Source of the DNA: Gammaproteobacteria bacterium
GTDB taxonomy: Bacteria > Pseudomonadota > Gammaproteobacteria > SZUA-140
Assembly (NCBI GenBank): GCA_046754065.1
Contig: JBHHVB010000002.1
Coordinates: 33,837-97,836, forward strand
Reading direction: 5' to 3'
DNA: 64,000 nt
Shown here: in pieces, positions 4,395-64,000 of the stretch
Numbering within the stretch: position 1 is the stretch's first letter
Layout: the number at the start of each line of letters is the position of its first letter
Translations under genes and position numbers: made by a program
Notes under the pieces: generated by a model
Seen by the model: only the letters and a program-made list of their open reading frames with translations
The model's database searches: none
Told to the model about the DNA's origin: nothing

Positions 4395-4932
4395 ACCTTC
4401 CACGATTAAAGTCGAGCGTTCAGGTTTTCCGGTTATAGATGGACCACCGAGGCCTATTTGATACGGGGGTCGGGGTTGATTCGCGCCATCCCTCCAAAAT
4501 TTGATCAGTGCGATCAGGCACCCCGGTAAGAGATGACCTAACGATGCTTGATCGCCATACGTCAATATATTGACAGTGCCCTTGGGTTTTCTACGGTTGG
4601 TTATCTGAAGAAAACTTGTGTGAATGCGATGTGAGTCAGGGCCGCTAGCCTAAGTACCAGTCATTACTAATATAAACGCGTTTTCGTTTAACTGGTATTG
4701 CCCGTTTTATTCAATCTCCCAATGGTGAAAAAGCATTTTTTTAGGCACAGGTTTTGCTGTTCGATCATATATGGTTCGCCGGCTGCATGACGATTCCACC
4801 GAATATAAAAATTATTGTCATACGCTAAAGCTTTAACCGTTCGGGCCGAAATGAATGTTACGGAAGTGATATTGGCGAGACTCTTGGATCTTTTAGAGGG
4901 AAATTTAAAAAAATTTAATAGGAACTAATCTG

Positions 4933-6608: not shown

Positions 6609-6999
6609 CCTGAATTGTAGCAGTCAAATAAGTGTCATCCATTTATCGACACGTGAAACCCCCGTTATTTAAACTAGTAGTTTGAATTGATCTCCTGATA
6701 TGAAGGAGCACTATGTTAGACATTTCTTGCCTCAAGAAAAATCCTGCAAGTTCTAGAGCTTAGCAATTGTTAATAATAGTGCGATTGTTCGTTAAGCGTA
6801 CCTTAATGCACGTTGCGGCAGTGCACAGTAAGATTTTTACATGTTCGATGGTCGATTCCGACTGCGGGCATAGTTATTGCTGAACACGATTATATGAACC
6901 ACTGAGGAGCAATGCTGTCCGTATCAATAGGCGCAGAATTTAGTTGCCGGTGGTTAGAGTGCAATACCCATCCTCAATGCCTGCCGCGGAGGTGCTGTT

Positions 7000-8931
7000 A
7001 TGACCGAAGAAAAAAGTGAGTTTGCTGAGATAATCAAAGAGGACCGTGCCCAGAGAGAAAACAAAAAGTGGCACGGCAGTTTTATTGAGTATCTTGAGAA
7101 AGTTAAAGATGATCCATCCATAGCCAGACTTGCGCATTCCAGGATGTATCACATCATCACTAAAGATGGCATGGAAGATATCACCGAATCTGATGATGCG
7201 AGGATCAAGCGCTTATACAAGGATGATCCGGTCAAGGTTTATAACTATTTCAAGGATGAATTCTTCGGCGTTGAAAAAACGGTTTCTCAAATCGTGCGTT
7301 ATTTTCATTCAGCGTCACTGCATGGTGAAGAAAGTAGGCAGGTACTGTATTTGATGGGGCCGGTGGGTGCCGGGAAAAGTTCACTCATCGAAAGTCTCCA
7401 TCGGGGACTTGAACAGGCGGACCCGATGTTTGCCATTGAAGGTTGTCCGATGCATGAGGAGCCACTGCATCTGATTCCGAGGCATCTGCGAAACGAATTT
7501 GAAAAGATGCTCGATGTTCATATTGAGGGCGATCTTTGCCCAGTTTGTCGCCATCGCTTAAAGGAAGAATTTAACGGCAAATATGAAGACGTACCCGTTT
7601 CGACGGTAGATTTTTCGAAACGTGCACGAAGGGGGGTCGGCGTCGTGCCCCCGGTAGATCCGAATAATCAGGATACTTCAGTACTGGTTGGTTCCGAAGA
7701 CATATCAAAACTGGACCTTTACTCAGAAGGCGATCCGCGCGTGCTGGATCTCAACGGTGCCTTTAATGTGGGTAATCGTGGAATGGTTGAGTTCATCGAG
7801 GTATTCAAGAACGAGGCTGAATACCTGCATACCATGATAACAGCAACGCAGGAGAAATTTATCCCGGCGCCTGGCAGGCATGGCACCGTTTACGTTGATG
7901 CTGTCATTGTTGCGCATTCCAACGAGGCGGAGTGGCAGAAATTCAAGGCCGATCACACTAACGAAGCGATTATGGACAGAATTGTGATGGTCAAGGTGCC
8001 CTATAATCTGCGATTGAGTGAGGAGGTGAAAATCTACCAGAAGATTCTGCATGGCTCGGAATTCCGTGCTCACATAGCACCTCATACACTGGAGATGGCT
8101 GCGATGTTTGCGATCCTCTCCCGGTTTGAGCCATCAGCCAAGTGCGATCCGATGACAAAACTACGTTTGTACAATGGCGAAGAGATTGTAGAGAAAGGTA
8201 AAACCAAGAAAATTAATGTGCAGGAACTTCAGGAGGAGGCTCGCCGCGAGGGGCTGTTTGGAGTATCGACGCGATTTATCATGAAGGCGCTTGATAACGC
8301 GCTGACCGAGAGCCCGGCGGGTATTAATCCTATAAACGTGAGGGAAGCATTAATCAATATGGTTAAGGATTCAGAGCTGGCCGACGATGTGCGTAAACAG
8401 TATCTGGAAATACTGCAGGATACGCTACAAAAGGCCTACCTGGAAACCCTCGAAAAAGAGATCACCAAGGCATTTGTCTATTCCTTCGAGGAGCAGGCTG
8501 AGTCATTGTTCCAGAACTATCTGGATCATACGGAGGCGTATGTAAATAAGACCTCGGTTAAAGATCGTAACACAAACGAAGAGTTGCAGCCCGATGAAGG
8601 ATTTCTCAAGTCTGTTGAAGAGCAGATTGCAATTGTTGGCTCCGCGGCTGACGGATTTCGTCAGGAGGTGATGGCATATCTTTGGGCAGCGACGCGCAGA
8701 AATGAAAAGATTACGTACAAATCATATGAACCCTTGAAAGAAGCCATTGAGAAAAAGCTGACCAGCTCAGTAAGGGATATTAGTCGTGTTATCACTAAAT
8801 CACGCACCAGAGACGAAGATCAATTGAAGAAATACAGCGATTTGATGCAATGCCTGCTCGACAATGGCTATAACGAGCATTCGGCAGAGGTCATTTTGAA
8901 ATATGCAGCAAATAATCTCTGGAAGGATTAA
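7000..8931 (+). CDS. yeaG: PrkA-family serine protein kinase (YeaG)
   Basis: 643 aa with Walker A LMGPVGAGKSSLIESL. Overall PrkA/YeaG architecture (AAA-like N domain plus kinase-like C domain). It is followed by yeaH and spoVR homologs. Confidence 0.88.
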   Translation: MTEEKSEFAEIIKEDRAQRENKKWHGSFIEYLEKVKDDPSIARLAHSRMYHIITKDGMEDITESDDARIKRLYKDDPVKVYNYFKDEFFGVEKTVSQIVRYFHSASLHGEESRQVLYLMGPVGAGKSSLIESLHRGLEQADPMFAIEGCPMHEEPLHLIPRHLRNEFEKMLDVHIEGDLCPVCRHRLKEEFNGKYEDVPVSTVDFSKRARRGVGVVPPVDPNNQDTSVLVGSEDISKLDLYSEGDPRVLDLNGAFNVGNRGMVEFIEVFKNEAEYLHTMITATQEKFIPAPGRHGTVYVDAVIVAHSNEAEWQKFKADHTNEAIMDRIVMVKVPYNLRLSEEVKIYQKILHGSEFRAHIAPHTLEMAAMFAILSRFEPSAKCDPMTKLRLYNGEEIVEKGKTKKINVQELQEEARREGLFGVSTRFIMKALDNALTESPAGINPINVREALINMVKDSELADDVRKQYLEILQDTLQKAYLETLEKEITKAFVYSFEEQAESLFQNYLDHTEAYVNKTSVKDRNTNEELQPDEGFLKSVEEQIAIVGSAADGFRQEVMAYLWAATRRNEKITYKSYEPLKEAIEKKLTSSVRDISRVITKSRTRDEDQLKKYSDLMQCLLDNGYNEHSAEVILKYAANNLWKD

Positions 8932-9009: not shown

Positions 9010-10200
9010 ATGGGCGCAACCATAAGACCATACTCGCCATCTGATGCGCTTCGATCTGATCGCAGCGCTGGTGACCGGCTGAGACATCGTCGCAAGATTC
9101 GTCAGGCGATTAGAGAAAACATTTCCGACATTATTTCCGAAGAATCGATTATCGGTCAGGATAAAGATCGTGTGATCAAGGTACCCATTCGAGGTATTAA
9201 AGAATACCGATTTGTTTATGGCGATAACACGCCGGGCGTGGGTACAGGCGATGGCGATTCTCAAAAAGGCCAGGTAATTGGCCAGGCAGGGCAGGATCAG
9301 GCTGATGGTGGGCAGTCAGGCGACCAGCCTGGTATGGATTATTATGAAACGGATATCACCCTCGAAGAGCTGGTTGAAATTATGTTCGAGGATCTGGAGC
9401 TGCCAGACCTTGAAAGCAAAAAGCTGCGCGAAGTCATGTCAGAACGTACAAGCAGACGCAAGGGTTATCGTCGGGTTGGTATTCATGTTCACATGGATAA
9501 AAAGCGTACTGCAAGATCACGCGTCAAGCGGAAACTGGCAACCAAACGTTTACAGACTGTTGAGGGGGGTGAAAAAGAGCGATTTCCCTTCCATGATGAT
9601 GATTTGAGATACAAGCGACTCAGGGAAGAATCGCAACCACAATCAAATGCCGTCGTCATTTGTATCATGGATACATCAGGGTCCATGGGGACTTTAAAGA
9701 AATATCTTGCACGAAGTTTTTTCTTTCTGTTGTATCAATTCGTGCGCACCCGATATGAAAATGTTGAGGTGGTGTTTGTCGCTCACCATACGAAGGGTCG
9801 CGAAGTCACCGAGGAGGAATTTTTTCATAAGGGTGAGTCGGGTGGAACGTTTATATCTTCAGGCTATAACAAGGCCCTGGAGATTATCAATGAGCGTTAT
9901 CATCCGGATATGTGGAATGTCTACGCGTTTCATTGCTCTGATGGCGATAACTTTGATAGCGACAATGATGCCGCGATGAAGGCGGCGCTGGAGTTATCTG
10001 CAATATGCAATTTATTCGGTTATGGAGAAATCAAGACAGAAGACGGATTTGGCTTCGAGAGCTCAATGCTGGAAAAATTTAAAAAGATTGAGACCGATAA
10101 TTTCCATACCTTGTTGATTGAATCAAAAGAGGATATCTGGCCCTGTTTCAAGGCATTTCTCACCAAGGAAAGAGCAACAACAGAGTCAAGGCAGGATTGA
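9010..10200 (+). CDS. yeaH: YeaH/DUF444 (UPF0229) vWA-domain protein
   Basis: 396 aa. The MIDAS-like motif is CIMDTSGSM. The basic N-terminus resembles YeaH. It is the conserved partner of yeaG. Confidence 0.85.
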   Translation: MGATIRPYSPSDALRSDRSAGDRLRHRRKIRQAIRENISDIISEESIIGQDKDRVIKVPIRGIKEYRFVYGDNTPGVGTGDGDSQKGQVIGQAGQDQADGGQSGDQPGMDYYETDITLEELVEIMFEDLELPDLESKKLREVMSERTSRRKGYRRVGIHVHMDKKRTARSRVKRKLATKRLQTVEGGEKERFPFHDDDLRYKRLREESQPQSNAVVICIMDTSGSMGTLKKYLARSFFFLLYQFVRTRYENVEVVFVAHHTKGREVTEEEFFHKGESGGTFISSGYNKALEIINERYHPDMWNVYAFHCSDGDNFDSDNDAAMKAALELSAICNLFGYGEIKTEDGFGFESSMLEKFKKIETDNFHTLLIESKEDIWPCFKAFLTKERATTESRQD

Positions 10201-10201
10201 T

Positions 10202-11629
10202 ATGAGTAGTTGGGAAATCAAGGACCTGGAATATTGGGAAAAGCGGATTAAAGAGAAGGTTGATGAATTTGGCCTGAATTGTTTTCCACAGGAGTTTGAG
10301 GTATGTAATCATGAACAGATGATTGGTTTTATGGCCTATTCTGGAATGCCTTCCCACTATCCTCATTGGTCATATGGCAAGTCCTACGAAAAGCAGAAGA
10401 CCCTTTATGATTATGGTGTATCAGGGTTGCCTTACGAGATGGTGATTAACTCAAATCCCTCTCTTGCCTATTTAATGCGTGAAAATTCGTTATGTCTGCA
10501 GATTCTGACTATTGCTCATGTTTATGGGCATAATGATTTTTTCAAAAATAACTTTACGTTTAGTCAGACGAGACCAGAATTGACCATTAGCGACTTCAAG
10601 TTACGCGCTGATCGTGTTCGCAGTTATATCGAAGATCCATCAATCGGGCAAGACAAGGTGGATAATATCCTGGACGCTGCTCATGCCTTATCGTTGCAAT
10701 GCAGGCACCATTTTGCAATCAGGAAGCTCGACGTTGATGAACAAAAAGAACGGATGATTGCTAATGCAGGAAACGGAAGCCCGGAAGAAATGTCAAATGA
10801 TGGGCGAGATGTTGAATCGGTTGATTTACATAAGCTGCCATTGCAGCCTGAAGAAGATATCCTGCTGTTTATTCGTGATAATCATAGAGGACTGGAGGAG
10901 TGGGAAAAAGATCTGTTAACCATCGTCCATGAGCAGGCGATGTATTTTGTACCGCAGATTGAAACGAAGATTATGAATGAGGGTTGGGCAAGCTATTGGC
11001 ACCACAAGATCATGCATAGTCTGGAGTTGCCACCAGACCTTCATATGGAATTTCTTGTTCATCAAAACCAGGTGGTTAGACCTCATCCGGGTAGTATCAA
11101 CCCTTATTATCTGGGGTTCAGGTTATGGCATGATATTCATCGGCGCTTTGAGAGTCCGACAAATGAAGAAATGGAAGCCTATGGAATGCATACCCAAAGC
11201 GGGGACGAAAAAATATTTGAGGTTCGTGAATCCGATCGTGATAGGTCTTTTTTGCGCCGTTTTTTGACGGAAAAGATGATGCGTGAAATGGATATGATTC
11301 AGTATGAGAAGAAGGGCGATAAAATGGTTATTACCAATGTGTCTGATGAGCAAGACTGGCAAACCGTTAAAGATACGCTTATCAGGAATACCGGTATGGG
11401 CTCAATACCGGTGATAAAGATTATCGATGCTGACTATAATGATCGCCATGAGCTTTATTTGCGTCACTATCATGATGGTAGAGAGCTGGATTTAGGGCAA
11501 GCAGAGAAAACACTCGCGTATGTTTATCAGTTATGGGGCCGCAAGGTTTTCCTGGAAACACAAATTAAAGACAAATCGACGATATTCTTCTTTGATAAAA
11601 ACGGTTTTGAGCAACAAAAACCCCACTGA
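10202..11629 (+). CDS. ycgB: SpoVR-family protein (YcgB-like)
   Basis: SpoVR-like domain of about 476 aa. The start was moved to ATG 10202 (MSSWEIKD..., RBS agga) to remove the overlap with yeaH. It is the third gene of the conserved yeaG-yeaH-ycgB module. Confidence 0.83.
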   Translation: MSSWEIKDLEYWEKRIKEKVDEFGLNCFPQEFEVCNHEQMIGFMAYSGMPSHYPHWSYGKSYEKQKTLYDYGVSGLPYEMVINSNPSLAYLMRENSLCLQILTIAHVYGHNDFFKNNFTFSQTRPELTISDFKLRADRVRSYIEDPSIGQDKVDNILDAAHALSLQCRHHFAIRKLDVDEQKERMIANAGNGSPEEMSNDGRDVESVDLHKLPLQPEEDILLFIRDNHRGLEEWEKDLLTIVHEQAMYFVPQIETKIMNEGWASYWHHKIMHSLELPPDLHMEFLVHQNQVVRPHPGSINPYYLGFRLWHDIHRRFESPTNEEMEAYGMHTQSGDEKIFEVRESDRDRSFLRRFLTEKMMREMDMIQYEKKGDKMVITNVSDEQDWQTVKDTLIRNTGMGSIPVIKIIDADYNDRHELYLRHYHDGRELDLGQAEKTLAYVYQLWGRKVFLETQIKDKSTIFFFDKNGFEQQKPH

Positions 11630-16223: not shown

Positions 16224-17030
16224 ATGAAGTTAACGGAAAAAACAGGCCTGGATAAGTTGCTCGCGATTTTGGAGGTCCTGCGTGATGAAAAAAAAGGTTG
16301 TCCGTGGGACAAGGAGCAGACGCTGGAGACTTTGCTTCCCTATACGATAGAAGAGGCCTATGAAGTTGCGGATGCTATTTTGCGAAATGATAACGGTGAT
16401 TTGTGCGATGAGCTGGGAGACCTGTTGTTTCAGGTCGTATTTTATAGCCAGATTAGTAAGGAAAACGACGCATTTGAGTTTTCGGATGTGGTCGACGCAT
16501 TAATTGATAAATTGATTAGACGTCATCCGCATGTCTTCTCGGGGCAAAAGATTGCGAGTTCGGCTGAACAGACTGTTGCCTGGGAGGCGCATAAAGTGGA
16601 AGAGCGGATTCAAAAACATGGTAAAAATGCCGGTGGTGGGCGACTCGATGGGGTATTAAAAAATCTACCTGCCCTGATTCGATCGATTAAATTACAGAAA
16701 CGTGCGGCAACGGCGGGTTTTGACTGGCACCAGATTGCCCGGGTGATGAGTAAAGTGGATGAAGAGTTAAACGAGGTCAAAGAGGTGCTGCATGCCAGGG
16801 ATGAAAGGCTCGAACACGAGCTTGGAGATTTGTTGCTAGCCGTTACCAATCTGGCACGTCATGCCGATATCGACCCGGAACTGGCACTGCAAAAGGCCAA
16901 TAATCGCTTTGTGCGTCGATTTGCCTGGATGGAGCGCATGGCTGCAGAGCAAGGCCGTGAATTCGAACAATTAACGCTATCGGAAATGGAGCTTCTGTGG
17001 ATTCAGGCAAAACAGGATGAGTGCTCATGA
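16224..17030 (+). CDS. mazG: nucleoside triphosphate pyrophosphohydrolase MazG
   Basis: 268 aa with two MazG EEXXE-type repeats (EEAYEVADAI and DEELNEVKE). Confidence 0.9.
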   Translation: MKLTEKTGLDKLLAILEVLRDEKKGCPWDKEQTLETLLPYTIEEAYEVADAILRNDNGDLCDELGDLLFQVVFYSQISKENDAFEFSDVVDALIDKLIRRHPHVFSGQKIASSAEQTVAWEAHKVEERIQKHGKNAGGGRLDGVLKNLPALIRSIKLQKRAATAGFDWHQIARVMSKVDEELNEVKEVLHARDERLEHELGDLLLAVTNLARHADIDPELALQKANNRFVRRFAWMERMAAEQGREFEQLTLSEMELLWIQAKQDECS

Positions 17031-17442
17031 AGGTGTCGAATCATATTCATAGCCAATGGATACTTCTGAACTATCCCCTTGCACGACTCGGTGTTTTATT
17101 GTTTTAAGAGAACGTTTTTTTAATTGATGGCGCAAGCTATTTCAGCATCCCTTAAGTCGCCCCGGATATAATCAAAACTGTTTAAAAGATTTTGTCTTCG
17201 TTTTGATGGTGAAGTCTTGTGAATGCCTTCAACGGTGTCAAATAATTGCTTTTAGATCGGTTGTTAAATAGGCAGAATTTGACACGCCTGGATGTGGGAG
17301 TGACTAATGCTGATTATGCTGGTTAGCTTCAAGTATTTGTCTTTTCAGAGAGGTAGTCTTTGTCCTTGTATTGGCTTAATAAATTGCCCGGTGGGAATGT
17401 TTTATCGTAATTTTGCCAAGGAACTCCAAGTGTTTGATTTTT

Positions 17443-17458
17443 TGGCATGACTATTGCC
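17443..17458 (+). promoter_or_regulatory. candidate sigma-54 (-24/-12) promoter
   Basis: TGGCAT-gacta-TTGCc has the exact GG-N10-GC spacing of the TGGCAC-N5-TTGCA consensus. It lies about 125 nt upstream of the small ORF and 680 nt upstream of amt. Confidence 0.3.
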
Positions 17459-17582
17459 GGTAATTGATTAAGGGACTGGAGAAATCGGTCGATATAGTAA
17501 GTATGGGAGAAAGATAATACCCATTATCAAGGAATGAACGAGGCGGTATCCCTAATAGACAATCATACAGGAGGATCTGGTG

Positions 17583-17789
17583 ATGATGAATTTGTTAGCT
17601 GAAGCGGTTATCATGTCGTTTGCTGTCGGTGGAATTGTTGGTGCACTGGTCGCATTGCAGTTAAGAGGTGACTTGAAAGGAGCATCCAAATCTTCTGTAG
17701 AGTCTTCTATGAAGGACAGTGAACAGCTTGTTGCAAAACAGGTTGTTGTGACTCATAGAAATAACCGTCACCCAAACCGCCGAAAATAA
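17583..17789 (+). CDS. small single-TM membrane protein (68 aa)
   Basis: Excellent SD AGGAGGA at 17569-17575, 7 nt before ATG 17583. One hydrophobic helix LLAEAVIMSFAVGGIVGALVALQL followed by a charged tail. It sits in the amt leader region. Confidence 0.45.
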   Translation: MMNLLAEAVIMSFAVGGIVGALVALQLRGDLKGASKSSVESSMKDSEQLVAKQVVVTHRNNRHPNRRK

Positions 17790-17945
17790 GATCCCCTTCG
17801 TTGTTAGCTGCGACGGTTGGGTGATTGATTGCAGTGATTTGATCGGTTGGTTTGTTATCATCTGGTAGATAACTGCGTCATATCAGACTGCCTTATTCCT
17901 CAATAATTTAGAGGCTTCGATTATTCTCCGCCTTTTTCCACGTAT

Positions 17946-17955
17946 CCCCCCCCCC
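17946..17955. repeat. homopolymeric C10 tract
   Basis: A run of 10 C in the intergenic region 185 nt upstream of amt. Confidence 0.9.
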
Positions 17956-18000
17956 ATCTCAAACGCAAGATTCTCCTGAATTGACTGCAATACGCTGCTA

Positions 18001-18039
18001 ATTAGTGCGTTTTGTTATGAAACGCACTAATATGGTGCG
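18001..18039 (+). promoter_or_regulatory. NtrC-like enhancer dyads (candidate upstream activator sites)
   Basis: A 12-bp perfect inverted repeat attagtgcgttt-N7-aaacgcactaat (18001-18031) overlaps cGCACtaatatgGTGCg (18023-18039). The latter fits GCAC-N7-GTGC of the NtrC consensus TGCACCAnnnTGGTGCA. It lies 55-90 bp upstream of a -24/-12 promoter. Confidence 0.35.
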
Positions 18040-18091
18040 TAATAATCAGCTTTGCTTATTGTAACCTATTGTTTTATAAGAGATAGGAGCC

Positions 18092-18107
18092 TGGTGCGTT
18101 ATTTGCA
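18092..18107 (+). promoter_or_regulatory. sigma-54 (-24/-12) promoter for amt
   Basis: TGGTGC-gttat-TTGCA with correct spacing. The predicted TSS is about 20 nt before the amt ATG. Confidence 0.5.
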
Positions 18108-18130
18108 ATAAGGTTTTTATTTTTTTATTT

Positions 18131-18138
18131 GGGGGGGG
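18131..18138. repeat. homopolymeric G8 tract forming the amt Shine-Dalgarno region
   Basis: GGGGGGGG ends 1 nt before the amt ATG at 18140. Confidence 0.9.
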
Positions 18139-18139
18139 T

Positions 18140-19336
18140 ATGGAGGTCCTGAAGTCAGGTACAGATGTGTTATTTGTATTGCTGGGCGCCATTATGGTAC
18201 TTGCAATGCACGCGGGATTTGCATTTCTAGAGGTGGGCACGGTCAGGAAAAAGAACCAGGTCAATGCGCTTGTTAAGATTATCTGCGATTTTGCTATCTC
18301 TACCATTGCATACTTTTTTATCGGTTATAGCGTTGCATATGGTATGCAGTTTATGGATAGCGCTCAGGCACTTACGGATAAAAATGGATATGAGCTGGTA
18401 AAATTCTTCTTTTTGCTTACCTTTGCGGCAGCGATACCGGCCATTATATCGGGTGGTATTGCGGAAAGGGCCAAATTCTATCCCCAGCTATGTGCGAGCT
18501 TTATCATTGTGGGCTTCGTTTATCCGTTTTTTGAAGGAATAACCTGGAACGGATCATTGGGTTTTCAGGCATGGCTGGAGACCTCATTCGGTGCCTCGTT
18601 TCATGATTTTGCAGGGTCTATTGTGGTTCACGCGATGGGTGGCTGGCTGGCTATCGTTGCCGTTATTTTGCTGGGAGCGCGCTATGGCCGCTATAAAAAA
18701 GACGGTATGATGGCCGCCCATCCACCCTCAAGCATCCCATTCCTTGCGCTGGGTTCGTGGATCTTGACCGTTGGCTGGTTCGGTTTTAACGTGATGTCTG
18801 CCCAAAGTGTTGATGCCGTAAGCGGCCTGGTAGCGGTTAACTCTCTAATGGCTATGGTGGGAGGCATTCTTACAGCATTGCTAATAGGGAAAAATGATCC
18901 GGGTTTTGTGCATAACGGTCCCTTGGCCGGACTAGTGGCCGTCTGTGCCGGCTCAGACGTAATGCACCCAGTTGGTGCGTTGATCACGGGGGCTGTCGCT
19001 GGTGCGTTATTTGTCGGGACATTTATGTTAACTCAAAACAAGTGGAAGCTAGATGATGTGCTGGGCGTGTGGCCTTTGCATGGATTATGTGGTGCGTGGG
19101 GAGGAATAGCCGCGGGTATTTTTGGGCTCGAGGCTCTCGGTGGAATGGGAGGCGTGAGCCTTGTTTCCCAGTTTATCGGCACCGCAGCCGGTATTCTGCT
19201 TGCAGTCACTGGTTCAGGTATTGTTTATGGTGTGCTGAAAATGGTCGTGGGTATTCGTCTGAGTCAGGAAGAAGAGTTCAACGGTGCTGATCTGAGCATT
19301 CATAAAATAGGGGCAGAACCCCCTGGTGATAATTAA
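18140..19336 (+). CDS. amt: ammonium transporter (Amt family)
   Basis: 398 aa polytopic membrane protein. The N-terminus DVLFVLLGAIMVLAMHAGFAFLEVG and the rest align with Amt/MEP. No glnK homolog is adjacent. Confidence 0.88.
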   Translation: MEVLKSGTDVLFVLLGAIMVLAMHAGFAFLEVGTVRKKNQVNALVKIICDFAISTIAYFFIGYSVAYGMQFMDSAQALTDKNGYELVKFFFLLTFAAAIPAIISGGIAERAKFYPQLCASFIIVGFVYPFFEGITWNGSLGFQAWLETSFGASFHDFAGSIVVHAMGGWLAIVAVILLGARYGRYKKDGMMAAHPPSSIPFLALGSWILTVGWFGFNVMSAQSVDAVSGLVAVNSLMAMVGGILTALLIGKNDPGFVHNGPLAGLVAVCAGSDVMHPVGALITGAVAGALFVGTFMLTQNKWKLDDVLGVWPLHGLCGAWGGIAAGIFGLEALGGMGGVSLVSQFIGTAAGILLAVTGSGIVYGVLKMVVGIRLSQEEEFNGADLSIHKIGAEPPGDN

Positions 19337-19433
19337 CGAATTAACCGGCGGTTCAGTGATATTCTGCCAATTTTGGTGGATATTTTGACTCAAAAAATGT
19401 AGCTTATACGGTCCTGTACAATGAACGGAATAT

Positions 19434-55925: not shown

Positions 55926-58127
55926 ATGAGTTTTAATAATATGAAGCGCAGGGAATTTTTAAAAGTTATGGGTTGGAGTGGTGTAGGCGCCACTGCACTG
56001 GCTGGTTGCGATGTGCCAACCACCGTTACCTTAAAAGAAGGCGACGAAGATGTTGTCTCTTATTTGATGCCAGAGGAATATGTTATTCCCGGTGTGGGTG
56101 TTACCTATGCCTCTACCTGCCAGCAATGTAGCGCTGGATGTGGTTTGCATGGTCGGGTACGTGAAGGCCGGGTACTGAAGCTTGAGGGGAATCCCGAGTC
56201 GTCAACTAACCTCGGTCGAATCTGTCAGATGGGCCAGGCAGGATTGCAGGCGCATTACAATCCCGATCGTATTAAAAAACCCCGTCTGCGTAAGGGTGAT
56301 TCACTTCAGGAAGTAAGCTGGGACGAAGCGCTAAGCGCACTTGAAGAAAAGACCGGCGTTAAGGCAGGCCGTGCTGCGTGGTTAACCGGATCAGTGAGCG
56401 GGCATCAGCGTACATTGATTGAAGCACATCTCGCGTCAATGAATTCAGATAGTCATTTTGTTCATGAAACTATCCACAACGCGGTTTGGAGAGCAGTGAG
56501 TAAAGATATGTTGGGCGATGCGAATCCACGCATAAGGATTGACAAGGCGAAGATGGTGCTCTCATTTGGTGCAGATTTCCTCGGTACCTGGGAGTCACCG
56601 GTGCACTTTGCTACTCAATATTCAACATTTCGTGATGCACCCCGAGGTGTACTGGTTCAAATTGAGCCAAAAATGACGTTAACCGGTGGTAATGCCGACC
56701 TGTGGGTTGCTAATCCTCCCGGCAGCGAAGGTGTACTGGCGTTAGGGGTTGCGAATGTGCTGGTTAATAAACTAGGGCATGATGTTTCAAATCTTCCATC
56801 TTCGATAAAAGATCTTATTTCAGGGTATTCGATAGATGCCGTCAAGGCAAAAACCGGTGTACCAGGTGAAACACTCATACGAATTGCTGAATTGTTGCAC
56901 GAAAGAGCACCCAGCCTTGTTTTGGCAGGTGCTTCTGCAGAGGGTCATGAGCATGGGTATGACTCTGTCGCTGCAATCATGTTGCTAAATATTATTTTAG
57001 GCAATGTTGGAAAAACCATCGAGTCCGCATCATTCCCTCATATGGATCTGGCTGCAAAATCAGGTAGCACAAAAGGTATCACTGATCTGGCGCAGGCAGC
57101 CGAAGCCCAGAAATTGGATGTATTGTTTATTGCCGGGTCCAACCCTGTTTATTCTGCACCGGGATTTGTTGGCATCAAGGAAAAACTCGCGGCTGTTCCT
57201 TTCAAGGTGGTTTTGACCCAGTTTGAAGATGAAACATCGCAAATTGCGGACCTCGTATTGCCGCTTGCGTCTGCGATCGAAGACTGGGGAACACATGTGC
57301 CGTCCGATCATGCAGGTAAGGCCGCACTGGTTAGCATCCAGCAGCCAATGATGGAACCCTTATACCCTGATACCAGGAGCTTGGGAGACATCTTGCTGTC
57401 TTTATTGAAGATGAGAGATGCCGATACCTATGGTGAGTTTGATGATTATTATGCATTCTTGCGTAAAGCTTTTTCTTCCTTGCCCGCATCAGTCAAAAAC
57501 GGGGCTGGTGATGATGAATTCTGGGCAAACGCGTTACAAAAAGGCGGGCTGACATTTGGATTACGCACTGGATCACTGACGTCGAATGCCGTTGAAGTGA
57601 ACCTGCCAGACAACACGGATGACCAGCAGTATCCGTATCATCTTGTGCCTTCAGCGCGACTGGGACTGTGGGATGGCCGCCATGCAAATATACCCTGGCT
57701 TCAGGAAGCGCCTGATCAGATTAGTAAGGTCTTCTGGGATTCATGGATTGAACTTCACCCTGAAACAGCTTCGAAATTGAAGGTTAAAGAAGGTGATGTG
57801 GTAAAAGTCAGTTCCGAACAGGGCTCAATACAGGCAATGGTCTATATCTATAAGGGGGTTCATCCCGATGCTATCGGCGTGCCGCTTGGACAGGGACATG
57901 AAGCATACGGACGTTATGCGAAGGGCCGTGGTATCAACCCGATGAAAATCCTCAATCCCGTTGCTGACAAAAGCACTGGCGAAGTCGCATTATTCGGTAC
58001 CCGTGTTCAAATAGCGAAAGCAGGTAAGCGCGGTACACTGTTGAGATTTGGTGGTAGCGAAGTGCAGGTTGGTCGTAAACTTGTTGCCACGATACCTGCA
58101 GAAAAGTTCAACCGTTTAGAAGGTTAA
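55926..58127 (+). CDS. actB1: ACIII subunit ActB, molybdopterin-oxidoreductase-like domain (B1), Tat-exported
   Basis: Tat signal RREFLKVMGWSGVGATALAGC. MopB-like fold without a full Mo-cofactor signature. 733 aa. Confidence 0.8.
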   Translation: MSFNNMKRREFLKVMGWSGVGATALAGCDVPTTVTLKEGDEDVVSYLMPEEYVIPGVGVTYASTCQQCSAGCGLHGRVREGRVLKLEGNPESSTNLGRICQMGQAGLQAHYNPDRIKKPRLRKGDSLQEVSWDEALSALEEKTGVKAGRAAWLTGSVSGHQRTLIEAHLASMNSDSHFVHETIHNAVWRAVSKDMLGDANPRIRIDKAKMVLSFGADFLGTWESPVHFATQYSTFRDAPRGVLVQIEPKMTLTGGNADLWVANPPGSEGVLALGVANVLVNKLGHDVSNLPSSIKDLISGYSIDAVKAKTGVPGETLIRIAELLHERAPSLVLAGASAEGHEHGYDSVAAIMLLNIILGNVGKTIESASFPHMDLAAKSGSTKGITDLAQAAEAQKLDVLFIAGSNPVYSAPGFVGIKEKLAAVPFKVVLTQFEDETSQIADLVLPLASAIEDWGTHVPSDHAGKAALVSIQQPMMEPLYPDTRSLGDILLSLLKMRDADTYGEFDDYYAFLRKAFSSLPASVKNGAGDDEFWANALQKGGLTFGLRTGSLTSNAVEVNLPDNTDDQQYPYHLVPSARLGLWDGRHANIPWLQEAPDQISKVFWDSWIELHPETASKLKVKEGDVVKVSSEQGSIQAMVYIYKGVHPDAIGVPLGQGHEAYGRYAKGRGINPMKILNPVADKSTGEVALFGTRVQIAKAGKRGTLLRFGGSEVQVGRKLVATIPAEKFNRLEG

Positions 58128-58138
58128 GGAGTCGGTAA

Positions 58139-59014
58139 ATGTCACTGAAAAATATCCTTGAAAACTGGTCCGGCTACCGTAAAGGTCGTGAACAAGGCGG
58201 TCATCACGAATACGAACATATGTGGGGGATGGTCGTAGATCTAAATAAATGTATCGGCTGTAATGCATGCGCCGTCGCCTGTTATGCAGAAAATAATCTT
58301 GCAGTGGTAGGTCCGGAAAAACTGGAAAAAGGTCAAGGGATGCACTGGTTGCGCCTGGAAAGATATTGGGATGAGCCAAACCTCGGAGAAGAGCGAGTAA
58401 GCACGACCCAGCAGCATGGCGCAAGCTTTATACCGATGATGTGCCAGCAATGTAACGCAGCGACATGCGAACCTGTCTGTCCGGTTGCCGCAACCTATCA
58501 TACGCCTGATGGATTGAACGCCCAGGTATATAATCGCTGTATTGGTTCCCGTTATTGTTCAAATAACTGTCCATACCGCCTGCGTTATTTTAACTTCTGG
58601 TCTTACTATGAAGGTGCAGAGAATGCATGGCCTTCTCCATTACATATGCAACTTAATCCCGATCTGTCGGTGCGTGATAAGGGTGTTATGGAAAAATGCA
58701 CTTTTTGTGTGCAAAGAATCAGGGCAGGCAAGGATAAGGCGAAAATGGAAAACAGGCCCGTCGCTGACGGTGATATCACACCAGCATGTGTCCAAACATG
58801 CCCAACCAGCGCTTTGGTTTTTGGTGATATTCTTAGCCTGCATAAAGCAGGTGCGCCAGAAAGCAAAGCAAGCAAGTTGTGGCGCAAACATCAAGTTGAG
58901 TTGGGTAGAACCGAACAGAAGAAACAGAATAAAGATCTTAGAGGTTATAGAGTGCTGGAATTTCTGAACACAGATCCTTGTGTGCTCTATCTGGAACGTG
59001 TACGTGAAGTTTAA
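58139..59014 (+). CDS. actB2: ACIII subunit ActB, 4Fe-4S ferredoxin domain (B2)
   Basis: Multiple Cys clusters (CIGCNACAVAC, CQQCNAATCEPVCP, CIGSRYCSNNCP, CTFCVQR) typical of PsrB/DmsB-like subunits. Confidence 0.8.
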   Translation: MSLKNILENWSGYRKGREQGGHHEYEHMWGMVVDLNKCIGCNACAVACYAENNLAVVGPEKLEKGQGMHWLRLERYWDEPNLGEERVSTTQQHGASFIPMMCQQCNAATCEPVCPVAATYHTPDGLNAQVYNRCIGSRYCSNNCPYRLRYFNFWSYYEGAENAWPSPLHMQLNPDLSVRDKGVMEKCTFCVQRIRAGKDKAKMENRPVADGDITPACVQTCPTSALVFGDILSLHKAGAPESKASKLWRKHQVELGRTEQKKQNKDLRGYRVLEFLNTDPCVLYLERVREV

Positions 59015-59054
59015 ACCATATAACTGCGTCAATAACGATAAATCGGTGTGAAGC

Positions 59055-60464
59055 ATGAAAGATATTAACGAAGATATAAAATGGGCAAAAATTAACGAAG
59101 ACGTTCTGCGATCCATGGAGAACCCGCGAAAGTGGTACTGGGTCTCGGTTGCCGGGTGTCTTGCACTACTATCATTAGCGGTTATTGGTGAGGTTTACCA
59201 ATATAACATAGGGATGGGGCCATCCAATCTAAACTGGCCACACATGTGGGACCTGTATATCGCGAGCTTCATTTTCTGGATTGGTATGAGCCATTCCGGA
59301 ACGCTGTTGTCGGCAATCTTGCATATCATTCAGTCAGACTGGCGTAAACCAATCTACCGATTTGCTGAGGCAATGACGACTTTCTCATTGTTAACAGCGG
59401 GTCTCTTCCCGGTTATCCATGCCGGTCGTTTGTGGAACATCTACTGGACATTGCCTTATTACACCGATCGAGGTATCTGGCCGAATTTTCGTTCCCCATT
59501 AATCTGGGATGCATTTGCGGTATTTACCTATCTGACATCATCTGCACTTTTCCTGTTCATTGGTATGATTCCAGATCTGGCAATCTGCCGTGACAATGCC
59601 AAGGGGTGGAGGAAGAAACTTTATACTGTGCTCTCATTAGGATGGCGCGGTGATGACAGGCAGTGGCGTCACTTCCGTAAAACCTATTTATTGATGGCAT
59701 GTTTTCTGATCCCTCTTGCGGTATCAGTACACTCAATCGTATCGTCTGACTTTGCGATGTCGATTATGCCTGGGTGGCATGTCACGTCATTCCCTCCTTA
59801 CTTTGTTGCAGGCGCCCTTTATTCAGGTTGTGCGGCGATTATCACGCTGTTTATCATGTTGCGTTACTTCTTCCGTTTTGAGGAATATATGACGCTCGCG
59901 ATTCTAGAGAAAACCTGTAAACTGACCTTTGCCATCGCGATGGTCTGGACTTATCTGAATCTGATTGAATTTGCTTCTGTCTGGTATGGTCATGACCTGG
60001 CTTCAAAAGAAGTGCTTATAGATAAAGCCACAGGGCCTTATTCCGGGATATTCTGGACGATGATATTCTGTGGGTCGGTTGTTCCATTTGCGTTGGCATT
60101 CACAAGCCTTAGGCGACATATTCCAACGATGTTGATTGTGTCCTTATTGTTAAACCTTGGGATGTTTTTCGAGCGCTGGATGATTGTTGCCCCGACACTT
60201 GCTGCATCCTATCACCCGTTTGCATTCGATACGATGTGGGGAAGCTGGGTTGAGTGGTTTATTGTTGCCGGTAGTTTTGGGTGGTTTGGCTTGTTATTCC
60301 TGGTATTTGTAAAAGTCTTTCCATCGGTATCGATGTATGAAGTTAAAGAAATGGTCTTCCATCGTAGGCATCTGGCGAATAAAGATATTTCGGCTGTGAT
60401 GCATAGAAGATCGACAGACCCGAAACCAGATGATGAGTCTGGGCTGGAAGGAGCAGGATCATGA
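59055..60464 (+). CDS. actC: ACIII membrane subunit ActC (NrfD/PsrC family)
   Basis: 469 aa polytopic NrfD-like protein. Confidence 0.8.
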   Translation: MKDINEDIKWAKINEDVLRSMENPRKWYWVSVAGCLALLSLAVIGEVYQYNIGMGPSNLNWPHMWDLYIASFIFWIGMSHSGTLLSAILHIIQSDWRKPIYRFAEAMTTFSLLTAGLFPVIHAGRLWNIYWTLPYYTDRGIWPNFRSPLIWDAFAVFTYLTSSALFLFIGMIPDLAICRDNAKGWRKKLYTVLSLGWRGDDRQWRHFRKTYLLMACFLIPLAVSVHSIVSSDFAMSIMPGWHVTSFPPYFVAGALYSGCAAIITLFIMLRYFFRFEEYMTLAILEKTCKLTFAIAMVWTYLNLIEFASVWYGHDLASKEVLIDKATGPYSGIFWTMIFCGSVVPFALAFTSLRRHIPTMLIVSLLLNLGMFFERWMIVAPTLAASYHPFAFDTMWGSWVEWFIVAGSFGWFGLLFLVFVKVFPSVSMYEVKEMVFHRRHLANKDISAVMHRRSTDPKPDDESGLEGAGS

Positions 60465-60985
60465 AAAAATGTCGAATCTTAGGTTTGTTTAGTAATTTTG
60501 ATGAAGCATTTGGTGCCATCTCTGATATCAGGCACTACAAAATCCAGGGCGTCTCAGTGGATGATGTCAATGTGATATCACCGATCGAGCACCCGGAAAT
60601 TGAGGAAGTTCTGGGAGATCGACCTGCTCATGTACCGAAATTCACAATCTGTGGGGCAATTTTCGGCATTTGTTTTGGCTTTCTTTTCCTGGCCTCTGCT
60701 CAGGCGAATTTTCTTGTCCAGCCGCAGGGTGGCAAGCCAGTGATTCCATTGCCATCTAATTTTGTACTGACCTATGAAATGTTGATCCTGTTCGGTGTGT
60801 TGATGACGCTGACCGGGTTTTTGATTGGGGCACGTCTGCTGAGAAAACGAAAAAGTTTGTATAGTGAAAAAGTGGGTGTCGATCAGGTAGGTATTGAACT
60901 AGAGGTAGAGGAGAAATACCTGGAACCTATTAAAGATTTATTTAAACAGCACGAGGTGCTGGAAGTACGAGACGAGGTATTATAA
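60461..60985 (+). CDS. actD: ACIII subunit ActD
   Basis: 174 aa with two TM segments. Conserved position and DUF3341-like sequence. Confidence 0.7.
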   Translation: MKKCRILGLFSNFDEAFGAISDIRHYKIQGVSVDDVNVISPIEHPEIEEVLGDRPAHVPKFTICGAIFGICFGFLFLASAQANFLVQPQGGKPVIPLPSNFVLTYEMLILFGVLMTLTGFLIGARLLRKRKSLYSEKVGVDQVGIELEVEEKYLEPIKDLFKQHEVLEVRDEVL

Positions 60986-61536
60986 TGAGAGCCAGACTGA
61001 TCGTAGCAGCATTATTGTTTCCTACCGTGGCCTTTGCATGGCCATGGTCTACAGATATGATGGATCAGCCTAATATTAAGCCGCAAGAAGGCGTGATGAA
61101 GGCTTTCCCAGCTCGCTCAATCCCCGTTTCAGGAATTCCGACGAAAGTTGCTAATCGTGACGAAGCGAAACCATTGAAGAGCCCCATTCCGGTGAGTGAA
61201 GCGTCCTTGAATAAAGGTAAAACCTTGTTCAGGATCTATTGTTCAGCATGCCATGGTTTAACCGGGGCTGCAGATTCACCTGTAACGAACAAGATTGGCG
61301 CAATTAGCCTGATTGATAGCTACGTACAGGAAACCCTCACAGAGGGATGGATTTATGGCACGATTACCTTCGGTAGCTATGTGATGCCCGCTTATGGATC
61401 TCCAGCATCGCGAGATGATAAGCGTGGATCGAATGATTTATCGATAGAGGAACGCTGGCATGTGGTTAATTATGTGAAACATGGTCTTGCAAAGGATGCC
61501 GAATCAAGTACCACCCGTACAGCGGCGAATAACTAG
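60985..61536 (+). CDS. actE: ACIII monohaem cytochrome c subunit ActE
   Basis: Signal peptide plus a single CSACHG haem motif. Confidence 0.72.
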   Translation: MRARLIVAALLFPTVAFAWPWSTDMMDQPNIKPQEGVMKAFPARSIPVSGIPTKVANRDEAKPLKSPIPVSEASLNKGKTLFRIYCSACHGLTGAADSPVTNKIGAISLIDSYVQETLTEGWIYGTITFGSYVMPAYGSPASRDDKRGSNDLSIEERWHVVNYVKHGLAKDAESSTTRTAANN

Positions 61537-63789: not shown

Positions 63790-63921
63790 TTTTGTTCGTG
63801 GTAGTCTATTGCTTGGATTACTTTCACTAGTGCCTGATTTAATATAAAAAGTGAAAAAATCGCCGTAATCATGTAAAGTTATCGGTCTTTAGATAAACGA
63901 TAAATATGCAAGAGGCACGCC

Positions 63922-64000
63922 ATGAATGATTACATCGCACCTTCTATATTATCAGCGGATTTTGCTCGTCTGGGTGAGGAAGTTACCCATGTCCTGGAAG
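63922..64000 (+). CDS. rpe: ribulose-phosphate 3-epimerase, N-terminal fragment (runs off window)
   Basis: MNDYIAPSILSADFARLGEEV... matches the Rpe N-terminus. RBS agagg. Confidence 0.8.
   Translation, partial: MNDYIAPSILSADFARLGEEVTHVLE

Follow-up and report, generated by a model that had tools for sequence, protein, structure and literature searches.

The ammonium transporter gene amt in this window—the whole 64,000-nucleotide (64-kb) stretch analysed here, from contig JBHHVB010000002.1 of an uncultured member of the Gammaproteobacteria—is probably an ordinary NtrC/sigma-54-controlled gene, its control region correctly spotted in the first-pass annotation of the sequence. Its -24/-12 promoter element and its NtrC dyads stand at positions that are conserved in its orthologues, and like most of them it has no PII gene beside it. 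Upstream of amt, on the same strand, lies a small membrane-protein gene preceded by a -24/-12 element of its own, and the two genes are likely to be separate tandem transcription units: amt under NtrC and sigma-54, and the small gene under the distal element. The locus adds one more to the predicted targets of NtrC and sigma-54, and poses no new question. The parts of the amt unit, in nucleotides (nt), base pairs (bp) and amino acids (aa), are these:

17993..18009, no strand: putative NtrC site 1, CGCTGCTAATTAGTGCG, centred at about -117; left half degenerate; 30 bp from site 2
18001-18012 / 18020-18031, no strand: perfect 12-bp inverted repeat with a 7-nt loop; first arm from the right half of site 1, second arm from the left half of site 2
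18023..18039, no strand: putative NtrC site 2 (strong), CGCACTAATATGGTGCG, centred at about -87; core GCAC-N7-GTGC at 18024-18038
18062..18074, minus strand: weak site resembling that of integration host factor (IHF), AAACAATAGGTTA against WATCAANNNNTTR, one mismatch; read from the sequence, within the AT-rich stretch that separates the promoter from NtrC site 2
18092..18107, plus strand: predicted proximal sigma-54 promoter TGGTGCGTTATTTGCA; GG at 18093-94, GC at 18105-06, 10 of 12 consensus matches
18140..19336, plus strand: amt, ammonium transporter, 398 aa, of the Amt-1-like clade and not AmtB; no fused domain
19363..19380, plus strand: terminator-like hairpin 3' of amt, from a terminator scan

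Tested against the sigma-54 consensus TGGCAC-N5-TTGCW, in which the GG and GC doublets are exactly 10 nt apart, the proximal element TGGTGCGTTATTTGCA has both doublets intact and correctly spaced, and it ends 33 nt before the amt ATG at 18140. Its position recurs among relatives, and this comparison is what shows the proximal module to be genuine. We compared 80 loci encoding the nearest Amt relatives (73–79% identity, 79% being the highest in the genome collection), drawn from Thiobacillus, Sulfuricella, Methylotenera, Methylophaga, Allochromatium, Dechloromonas, Massilia and many metagenome-assembled genomes (MAGs); their upstream regions are not alignable. An exact-match look-up returned only near-identical contigs, all from the same study. 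A -24/-12 element occurs 25–95 nt before the ATG in 62 of 79 orthologous loci, against 0.8 in shuffled sequences, and the modal distance from element to ATG, 33 nt, is also that of the window. Over 500 nt upstream of the orthologues almost no other matches appear, whether farther 5' or on the antisense strand. Two loci (L063 and L048) carry a near-identical TGGTGCG(T/G)TTCTTGCA, and the orthologous loci with conserved elements span many Beta- and Gammaproteobacteria. In several orthologues (L018, L020, L022, L023, L035, L073, L048 and L063) a third GCAC-N7-GTGC dyad overlaps the -24 element, as in TGCACTGGAATGGTGCTTGCT; the window retains only the half-site TGGTGCG there.

The published NtrC box is a 17-bp dyad, TGCACCAnnnTGGTGCA (PMC8743547; also PMC4987338), and site 2 fits it, GCAC-N7-GTGC core included, as a member of the NtrC regulon would. 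A position weight matrix (PWM) scan, which the first-pass annotation had proposed as a check, gives this dyad (18024) the best NtrC score in the whole window, 23.1 bits with a matrix made from orthologue sites. Its distances to the ATG (116 nt) and to the -24 element (68 nt) are also those most common for such sites in the orthologues. Exact dyads in the orthologues pile up 116–121 and 145–155 nt before the ATG, and their offsets from the -24 element peak at 60–79 and 90–109 nt. Site 1, offset by 98 nt, falls within the second of these modes and resembles orthologue sites such as AGCACTAAATTAGTGCT in L028. A promoter was called in 61 loci. In the zone 55–125 nt 5' of the -24 element, an exact dyad is present in 41 of them; if one mismatch is allowed the figure is 50, and two dyads occur in 31. 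With dyads 68 and 98 nt upstream of its -24 element, the proximal promoter has putative enhancer sites for an AAA+ activator, and the dyad centres, 18001 and 18031, have the spacing (~30–32 bp) expected of sites that share one face of the helix.

This arrangement is like the glnAp2 enhancer, in which two strong NtrC sites lie about three helical turns apart and upstream of a sigma-54 promoter: the dyads of the window are 30 bp apart, and their geometry is conserved in the orthologues. In E. coli the glnAp2 sites are found at about -140 and -108, whereas those of the window lie nearer to the promoter, at about -117 and -87, and the distal one is degenerate.

The window holds three exact GCAC-N7-GTGC dyads, where 0.64 would be expected. 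Two lie inside coding regions, at 18964-18978 (in amt) and 58698-58712; codons for M-H-P-V-G-A spell the copy in amt, which is therefore probably coincidental. The motif GTGCGT, said in the first-pass annotation to recur four times, does so within 95 bp, at 18005 (+), 18022 (-), 18035 (+) and 18094 (+). This is a clearly local cluster—27 copies are present in the 128 kb of both strands—and three of the four are NtrC half-sites, while the fourth is inside the -24 element. The annotation also listed a perfect 12-bp inverted repeat along with GCAC-N7-GTGC. Both are present as described, but the repeat is not a separate element, because its arms belong to two adjacent NtrC sites, one to the right half of site 1 and the other to the left half of site 2. 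According to a repeat finder it extends imperfectly to 22-nt arms (17991-18012 / 18020-18041, 82% complementary), and these arms are the two complete NtrC sites.

The motifs, their conserved placement in the orthologues and the lack of PII genes at the orthologous loci are observed directly. From the motifs we infer the binding proteins, the transcription starts and the nitrogen regulation, and the steps that follow are modelled on what is established for NtrC and sigma-54 elsewhere. The amt gene would be monocistronic, and induced by nitrogen limitation. Phosphorylated NtrC would bind to the two dyads, 30 bp or three helical turns apart and centred at about -117 and -87, oligomerise, and loop the AT-rich spacer with its weak IHF-like site (18062-18074), and so contact sigma-54 RNA polymerase at TGGTGC-N5-TTGCA (18092-18107). 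Transcription would begin at about 18118, giving a 22-nt leader in which a G-run serves as the ribosome-binding site, and the terminator-like hairpin (19363-19380) would follow amt. The ~900 nt of lineage-specific DNA upstream would contribute the gene for a small single-pass membrane protein, with its own -24/-12 element at 17443, on which an activator would act.

The first-pass annotation had made much of a missing glnK. The gene is indeed absent: a tblastn search with E. coli GlnK found no PII gene in the 64-kb window (best E = 9.4) and no glnK remnant in the spacer between amt and the mazG gene upstream. The absence is no anomaly, however, for a PII gene is likewise missing within 6 kb in 78 of the 80 orthologous loci. 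In the other two, it lies immediately 3' of amt (L026) or 1.6 kb upstream (L071), and none is directly upstream of amt. The search is sensitive enough for this purpose, since the L026 match has 69% identity and an E of 6e-49. On the loci compared, a stand-alone amt is the rule for this Amt clade. The small open reading frame (ORF) that was thought to occupy the position of glnK is no substitute for it, either: its family is never next to amt in the other loci examined.

The protein itself is a full-length member of the Amt/Mep/Rh superfamily: it matches Pfam PF00909 over residues 12–389 (E 7e-87; 292 bits, against a cut-off of 23.2) and has the twin-histidine pore residues (VVHAMGG and WPLHGLCG), which align with those of solved Amts. 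Its ATG agrees in position with the starts of its orthologues. On the AmtB equivalog model, NCBIfam NF007947, it scores 130.3 bits where the cut-off is 657, and on TIGR00836, 'amt', 296 bits, below the cut-off of 343. The closest solved structures are Sd-Amt1 (8qj3), Ks-Amt5 (6eu6) and Af-Amt1 (A. fulgidus Amt-1, 2b2f), with E. coli AmtB farther away. To A. fulgidus Amt-1 and the transmembrane modules of the other two it aligns over its whole length (E 1e-37 to 1e-51), twin histidines and acidic C-terminal motif, RLSQEEEFNGADLSIH, included. Judged by these matches, the window Amt is Amt-1-like and no orthologue of AmtB. Unlike Sd-Amt1 and Ks-Amt5, it has no fused signalling domain, and its predicted role is transport. 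AmtB-type channels use a conserved C-terminal region for control by PII. Since the window Amt keeps RLSQEEEFNGADLSIH and the twin histidines, post-translational control by a PII protein is possible, though its gene, glnB or glnK, would have to be elsewhere in the genome.

In E. coli and Salmonella, glnK-amtB is transcribed from a sigma-54 promoter, and NtrC sites of the form TGCACC-N5-GGTGCA lie upstream of it (PMC4987338, PMC8743547). The window is similar in pairing an ammonium-transporter unit with this kind of control region, but it differs in its Amt clade and in lacking glnK, both from the unit and from the whole 64 kb; with no PII gene adjacent, it is no glnK-amtB operon. For annotators, the point to note is that genes of this clade, ~398 aa and Amt-1-like, usually stand alone in Beta- and Gammaproteobacteria, without glnK, and yet their two NtrC sites and sigma-54 promoter are well conserved.

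The order of genes here is mazG (16224-17030), amt, miaB, phoH/ybeZ and ybeY. Two other loci, L017 and L063, share the mazG-amt-miaB-phoH-ybeY synteny with a gap of just 180–225 nt between mazG and amt, whereas in the window this spacer is 1109 nt long. Some 900 nt of it is lineage-specific on that account. When 17031-17990 was compared by blastn with all of the fetched loci, nothing matched, and by tblastx only the small gene did. No RNA family of Rfam was found in 17000-18200, even with E up to 10; the only matches were meaningless, snoRNA-like ones. This additional DNA contains two features of interest:

17443..17458, plus strand: distal -24/-12 element TGGCATGACTATTGCC, candidate sigma-54 promoter of the small gene; GG-N10-GC, 10 of 12 matches
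17583..17789, plus strand: small membrane-protein gene, 68 aa; ATG at 17583, alternative start GTG at 17580; strong Shine-Dalgarno (SD) sequence AGGAGGA

The small gene most likely starts at ATG 17583, and its product is predicted to be a single-pass membrane protein. It has no Pfam or NCBIfam match, and the sources that name it call it hypothetical. A word-indexed protein search found only the ORF itself, as a hypothetical protein of a Gammaproteobacteria MAG. An exhaustive HMMER search found three weak relatives, a profile search then brought the total to at least 21 proteins of 44–76 aa, and a scan of metagenomes added two distant loci. The family (loci L083-L087 and L092-L102) has a common N-terminal helix, MMEFMVExVxTAFAxGGxxGAxIALxL, with E7, F13, G16, G17, G20, A21, A24 and L27 invariant, and the long forms, that of the window among them, also have a basic C-terminal tail. 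A family of at least 21 members with a conserved helix shows that the gene is real. In other loci its neighbours are glutaredoxin and PilZ genes, one on either side, and a DUF444 (yhbH)-spoVR pair often lies a few kb away; none of the other loci examined has it beside amt, and none of the orthologous amt loci has it at all (tblastn). One family member, L099, comes from an assembly that bears a cyanobacterial name (GCA_975901145.1, labelled Kaarinaea lacus), where its contig is 13 kb long. Its context, GAF-glutaredoxin-small gene-CSD, is as in other family loci, which suggests that the contig is a contaminant from another organism.

Both of the -24/-12 elements reported in the first-pass annotation exist, then, at 17443 and 18092, but only the second belongs to a control region that the orthologues conserve; the first occurs in the amt control region of no relative, and probably does not serve amt. 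With moderate confidence, we read it as the small gene's own sigma-54 promoter. It ranks 8 among 128,000 window positions on the PWM, and lies ~125 nt before the small gene, for a predicted 5' untranslated region of ~114 nt (which has no significant fold, z = 0.36). Homologues of the small gene have a conserved upstream element too, TGGTACGGAATTTGTAT or TGGCATAGTCTCTGCA. In four of six sampled groups (L083/L097, L085/L098/L101, L094, L096, L100), the pattern TGG-N8-[TC]TG[CT] occurs 136–190 nt before the ATG, where chance would supply this relaxed form at ~0.15 per region. It takes the form of a conserved TTGGTACGGAATTTGTAT 150–190 nt before the ATG in L083, L094, L096, L097 and L100, and of TGGCATAGTCTCTGCA at 136–149 nt in L085, L098 and L101. 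This small, unannotated membrane-protein family appears to be linked to -24/-12 promoters, a second point of use to annotators.

There is a likeness here to the sigma-54-dependent genes pspG and pspA-pspBC. These, too, concern small membrane proteins, and the consensus TGGTACGGAATTTGTAT resembles the pspA promoter, TGGCACGCAAATTGTAT, in its unusual TTGT at -12, which is functional in E. coli pspA (PMC2831329). Unlike the Psp systems, the small gene has no Pfam Psp match and no psp-type neighbours. Its relatives share a TGACA-N7-GTCAC block ~135 nt 5' of their element; upstream of the distal element of the window there is only a 9-bp inverted repeat, GTGTCAAAT / ATTTGACAC (17235-17243 / 17277-17285). 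One public source calls a gene at 17307-17450 (+), an ORF of 47 aa whose end overlaps the distal element; none of the fetched loci has a relative of it.

Two homopolymer tracts flank the amt control module, and are two of only four runs of G or C of at least seven in the 64 kb:

17946..17955, plus strand: C10 tract, complementary to G8; length 9, 10 or 11 between sample assemblies
18131..18138, plus strand: G8 tract in the Shine-Dalgarno region of amt; length 8 or 9 between sample assemblies

Four independent sample assemblies of this organism are alike apart from a single substitution in each and the lengths of the two tracts, which are the only indels. The C tract measures 10, 11, 9 and 9, and the G tract 8, 9 and 9, with one contig ending inside it. 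The differences may be homopolymer assembly noise or real slippage. In the modelled RNA of read-through transcripts, the G tract pairs with the C tract (P 0.92–0.99), while in the modelled short transcript from 18118 the G tract and start codon are about half unpaired. One can imagine from this that an anti-SD/SD helix of C10 and G8 silences read-through RNA, that only NtrC/sigma-54-started transcripts are translated, and that slippage tunes or phase-varies ammonium uptake. We consider this improbable. The tracts are the only feature of the locus that might repay experiment.

Several observations weigh against the two-unit reading as a whole. The source is an uncultured Gammaproteobacteria MAG, and none of rpoN, ntrB, ntrC, glnB and glnK lies within the 64 kb; a motif search for signatures of RpoN (RpoN box), activator (GAFTGA), PII and glutamine synthetase found none there. 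With up to two mismatches, the sigma-54 consensus occurs 43 times in the window where 36.5 are expected, and on this measure neither of the two -24/-12 matches is significant by itself. Both score 12–13 bits on the PWM, against an orthologue median of 19. NtrC site 1 has two mismatches to GCAC-N7-GTGC, its left half being GCTG. The PWM scan found no NtrC dyad near the distal element, and no activator site is recognisable there. Two of the six sampled groups of small-gene relatives—L087/L092/L093/L102, the 44-aa subgroup, and L099—have no -24/-12 element, and the terminator scan predicts nothing from 17790 to 18140, the interval between the small gene and amt, which means that the units may not be fully independent.

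Weak as single-sequence motif statistics are, it would be extraordinary for all of these motifs to be coincidental and for amt to be expressed constitutively from an unrecognised sigma-70 promoter: promoter and dyads keep their positions across at least 60 upstream regions that are not alignable. It is possible but doubtful that the distal element, in particular, matches by chance and that a sigma-70-type promoter serves the small gene. The chance frequency of the consensus, the missing activator dyad and the groups that lack the element all speak for it, as does a sigma-70-like match at 17489-17518; such matches, however, are themselves at chance level (4 against 4.5 expected). Against it, too, a single element in the same orientation, at 125–190 nt, is present in the window and in four other sampled groups, and is better conserved than its flanks (alignment A2). 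Moreover, when GG and GC are held fixed and at least 10 of 12 matches are demanded, only six sites remain in 128 kb, and four of them are intergenic and point towards a gene.

If the distal element is a promoter, it might drive amt as well, by read-through, the small gene and amt forming one operon and amt having two tandem sigma-54 promoters, as the first-pass annotation implied. The genes are on the same strand and 350 nt apart, the distal element scores as high as the proximal one, and read-through would be possible given that no intrinsic terminator is predicted between them. We nevertheless think a single operon unlikely. The two genes are not found together at any of the other loci examined, whether searched from the amt side or from that of the small gene; amt already has a complete activator-site and promoter module of its own; and read-through transcripts would be poorly translated, because the G tract of the ribosome-binding site pairs with the C tract in the modelled RNA. 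Very improbable, finally, is the idea that the 12-bp inverted repeat is an RNA hairpin—a terminator or attenuator of the small-gene transcript—or the operator of some other dimeric regulator. A perfect 12-bp stem with a 7-nt loop would hardly arise by chance in 1.1 kb, and the region folds well as RNA (z = -6.0), but palindromic protein sites inflate such z-scores, and the arms are half-sites of two dyads, which dozens of orthologues keep in place relative to the promoter without any such 12-bp hairpin. We reject a terminator, there being no T-run (U-run in the RNA) after the stem and nothing there in the terminator scan. Two separate units, amt with its NtrC/sigma-54 module and the small gene with its distal element, remain the arrangement we favor.

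Other sigma-54-like sequences are present in the window. One, GGGCATAGTTATTGCT at 6866-6881 (+), is 119 nt before a prkA (yeaG-like) operon composed of prkA (7000-8931), yhbH (9010-10200) and spoVR (10118-11629), and GCAC...GTGC-type sequences with N9 spacing lie ~55 nt upstream of it, at 6808-6826. In Salmonella, yeaGH is an NtrC/sigma-54 target (PMC4987338). Two more good -24/-12 matches are intergenic: AGGCACAGGTTTTGCT at 4743-4758 (+) faces a gene for a methyl-accepting chemotaxis protein (4933), and TGGCGTGCCTCTTGCA at 63907-63922 (-) faces a DUF3530 gene (63789, minus strand). At 55926-61536 (+) there is an Alternative Complex III-like cluster, with genes for a molybdopterin-type subunit, a 4Fe-4S subunit, NrfD, ActD and cytochrome c.

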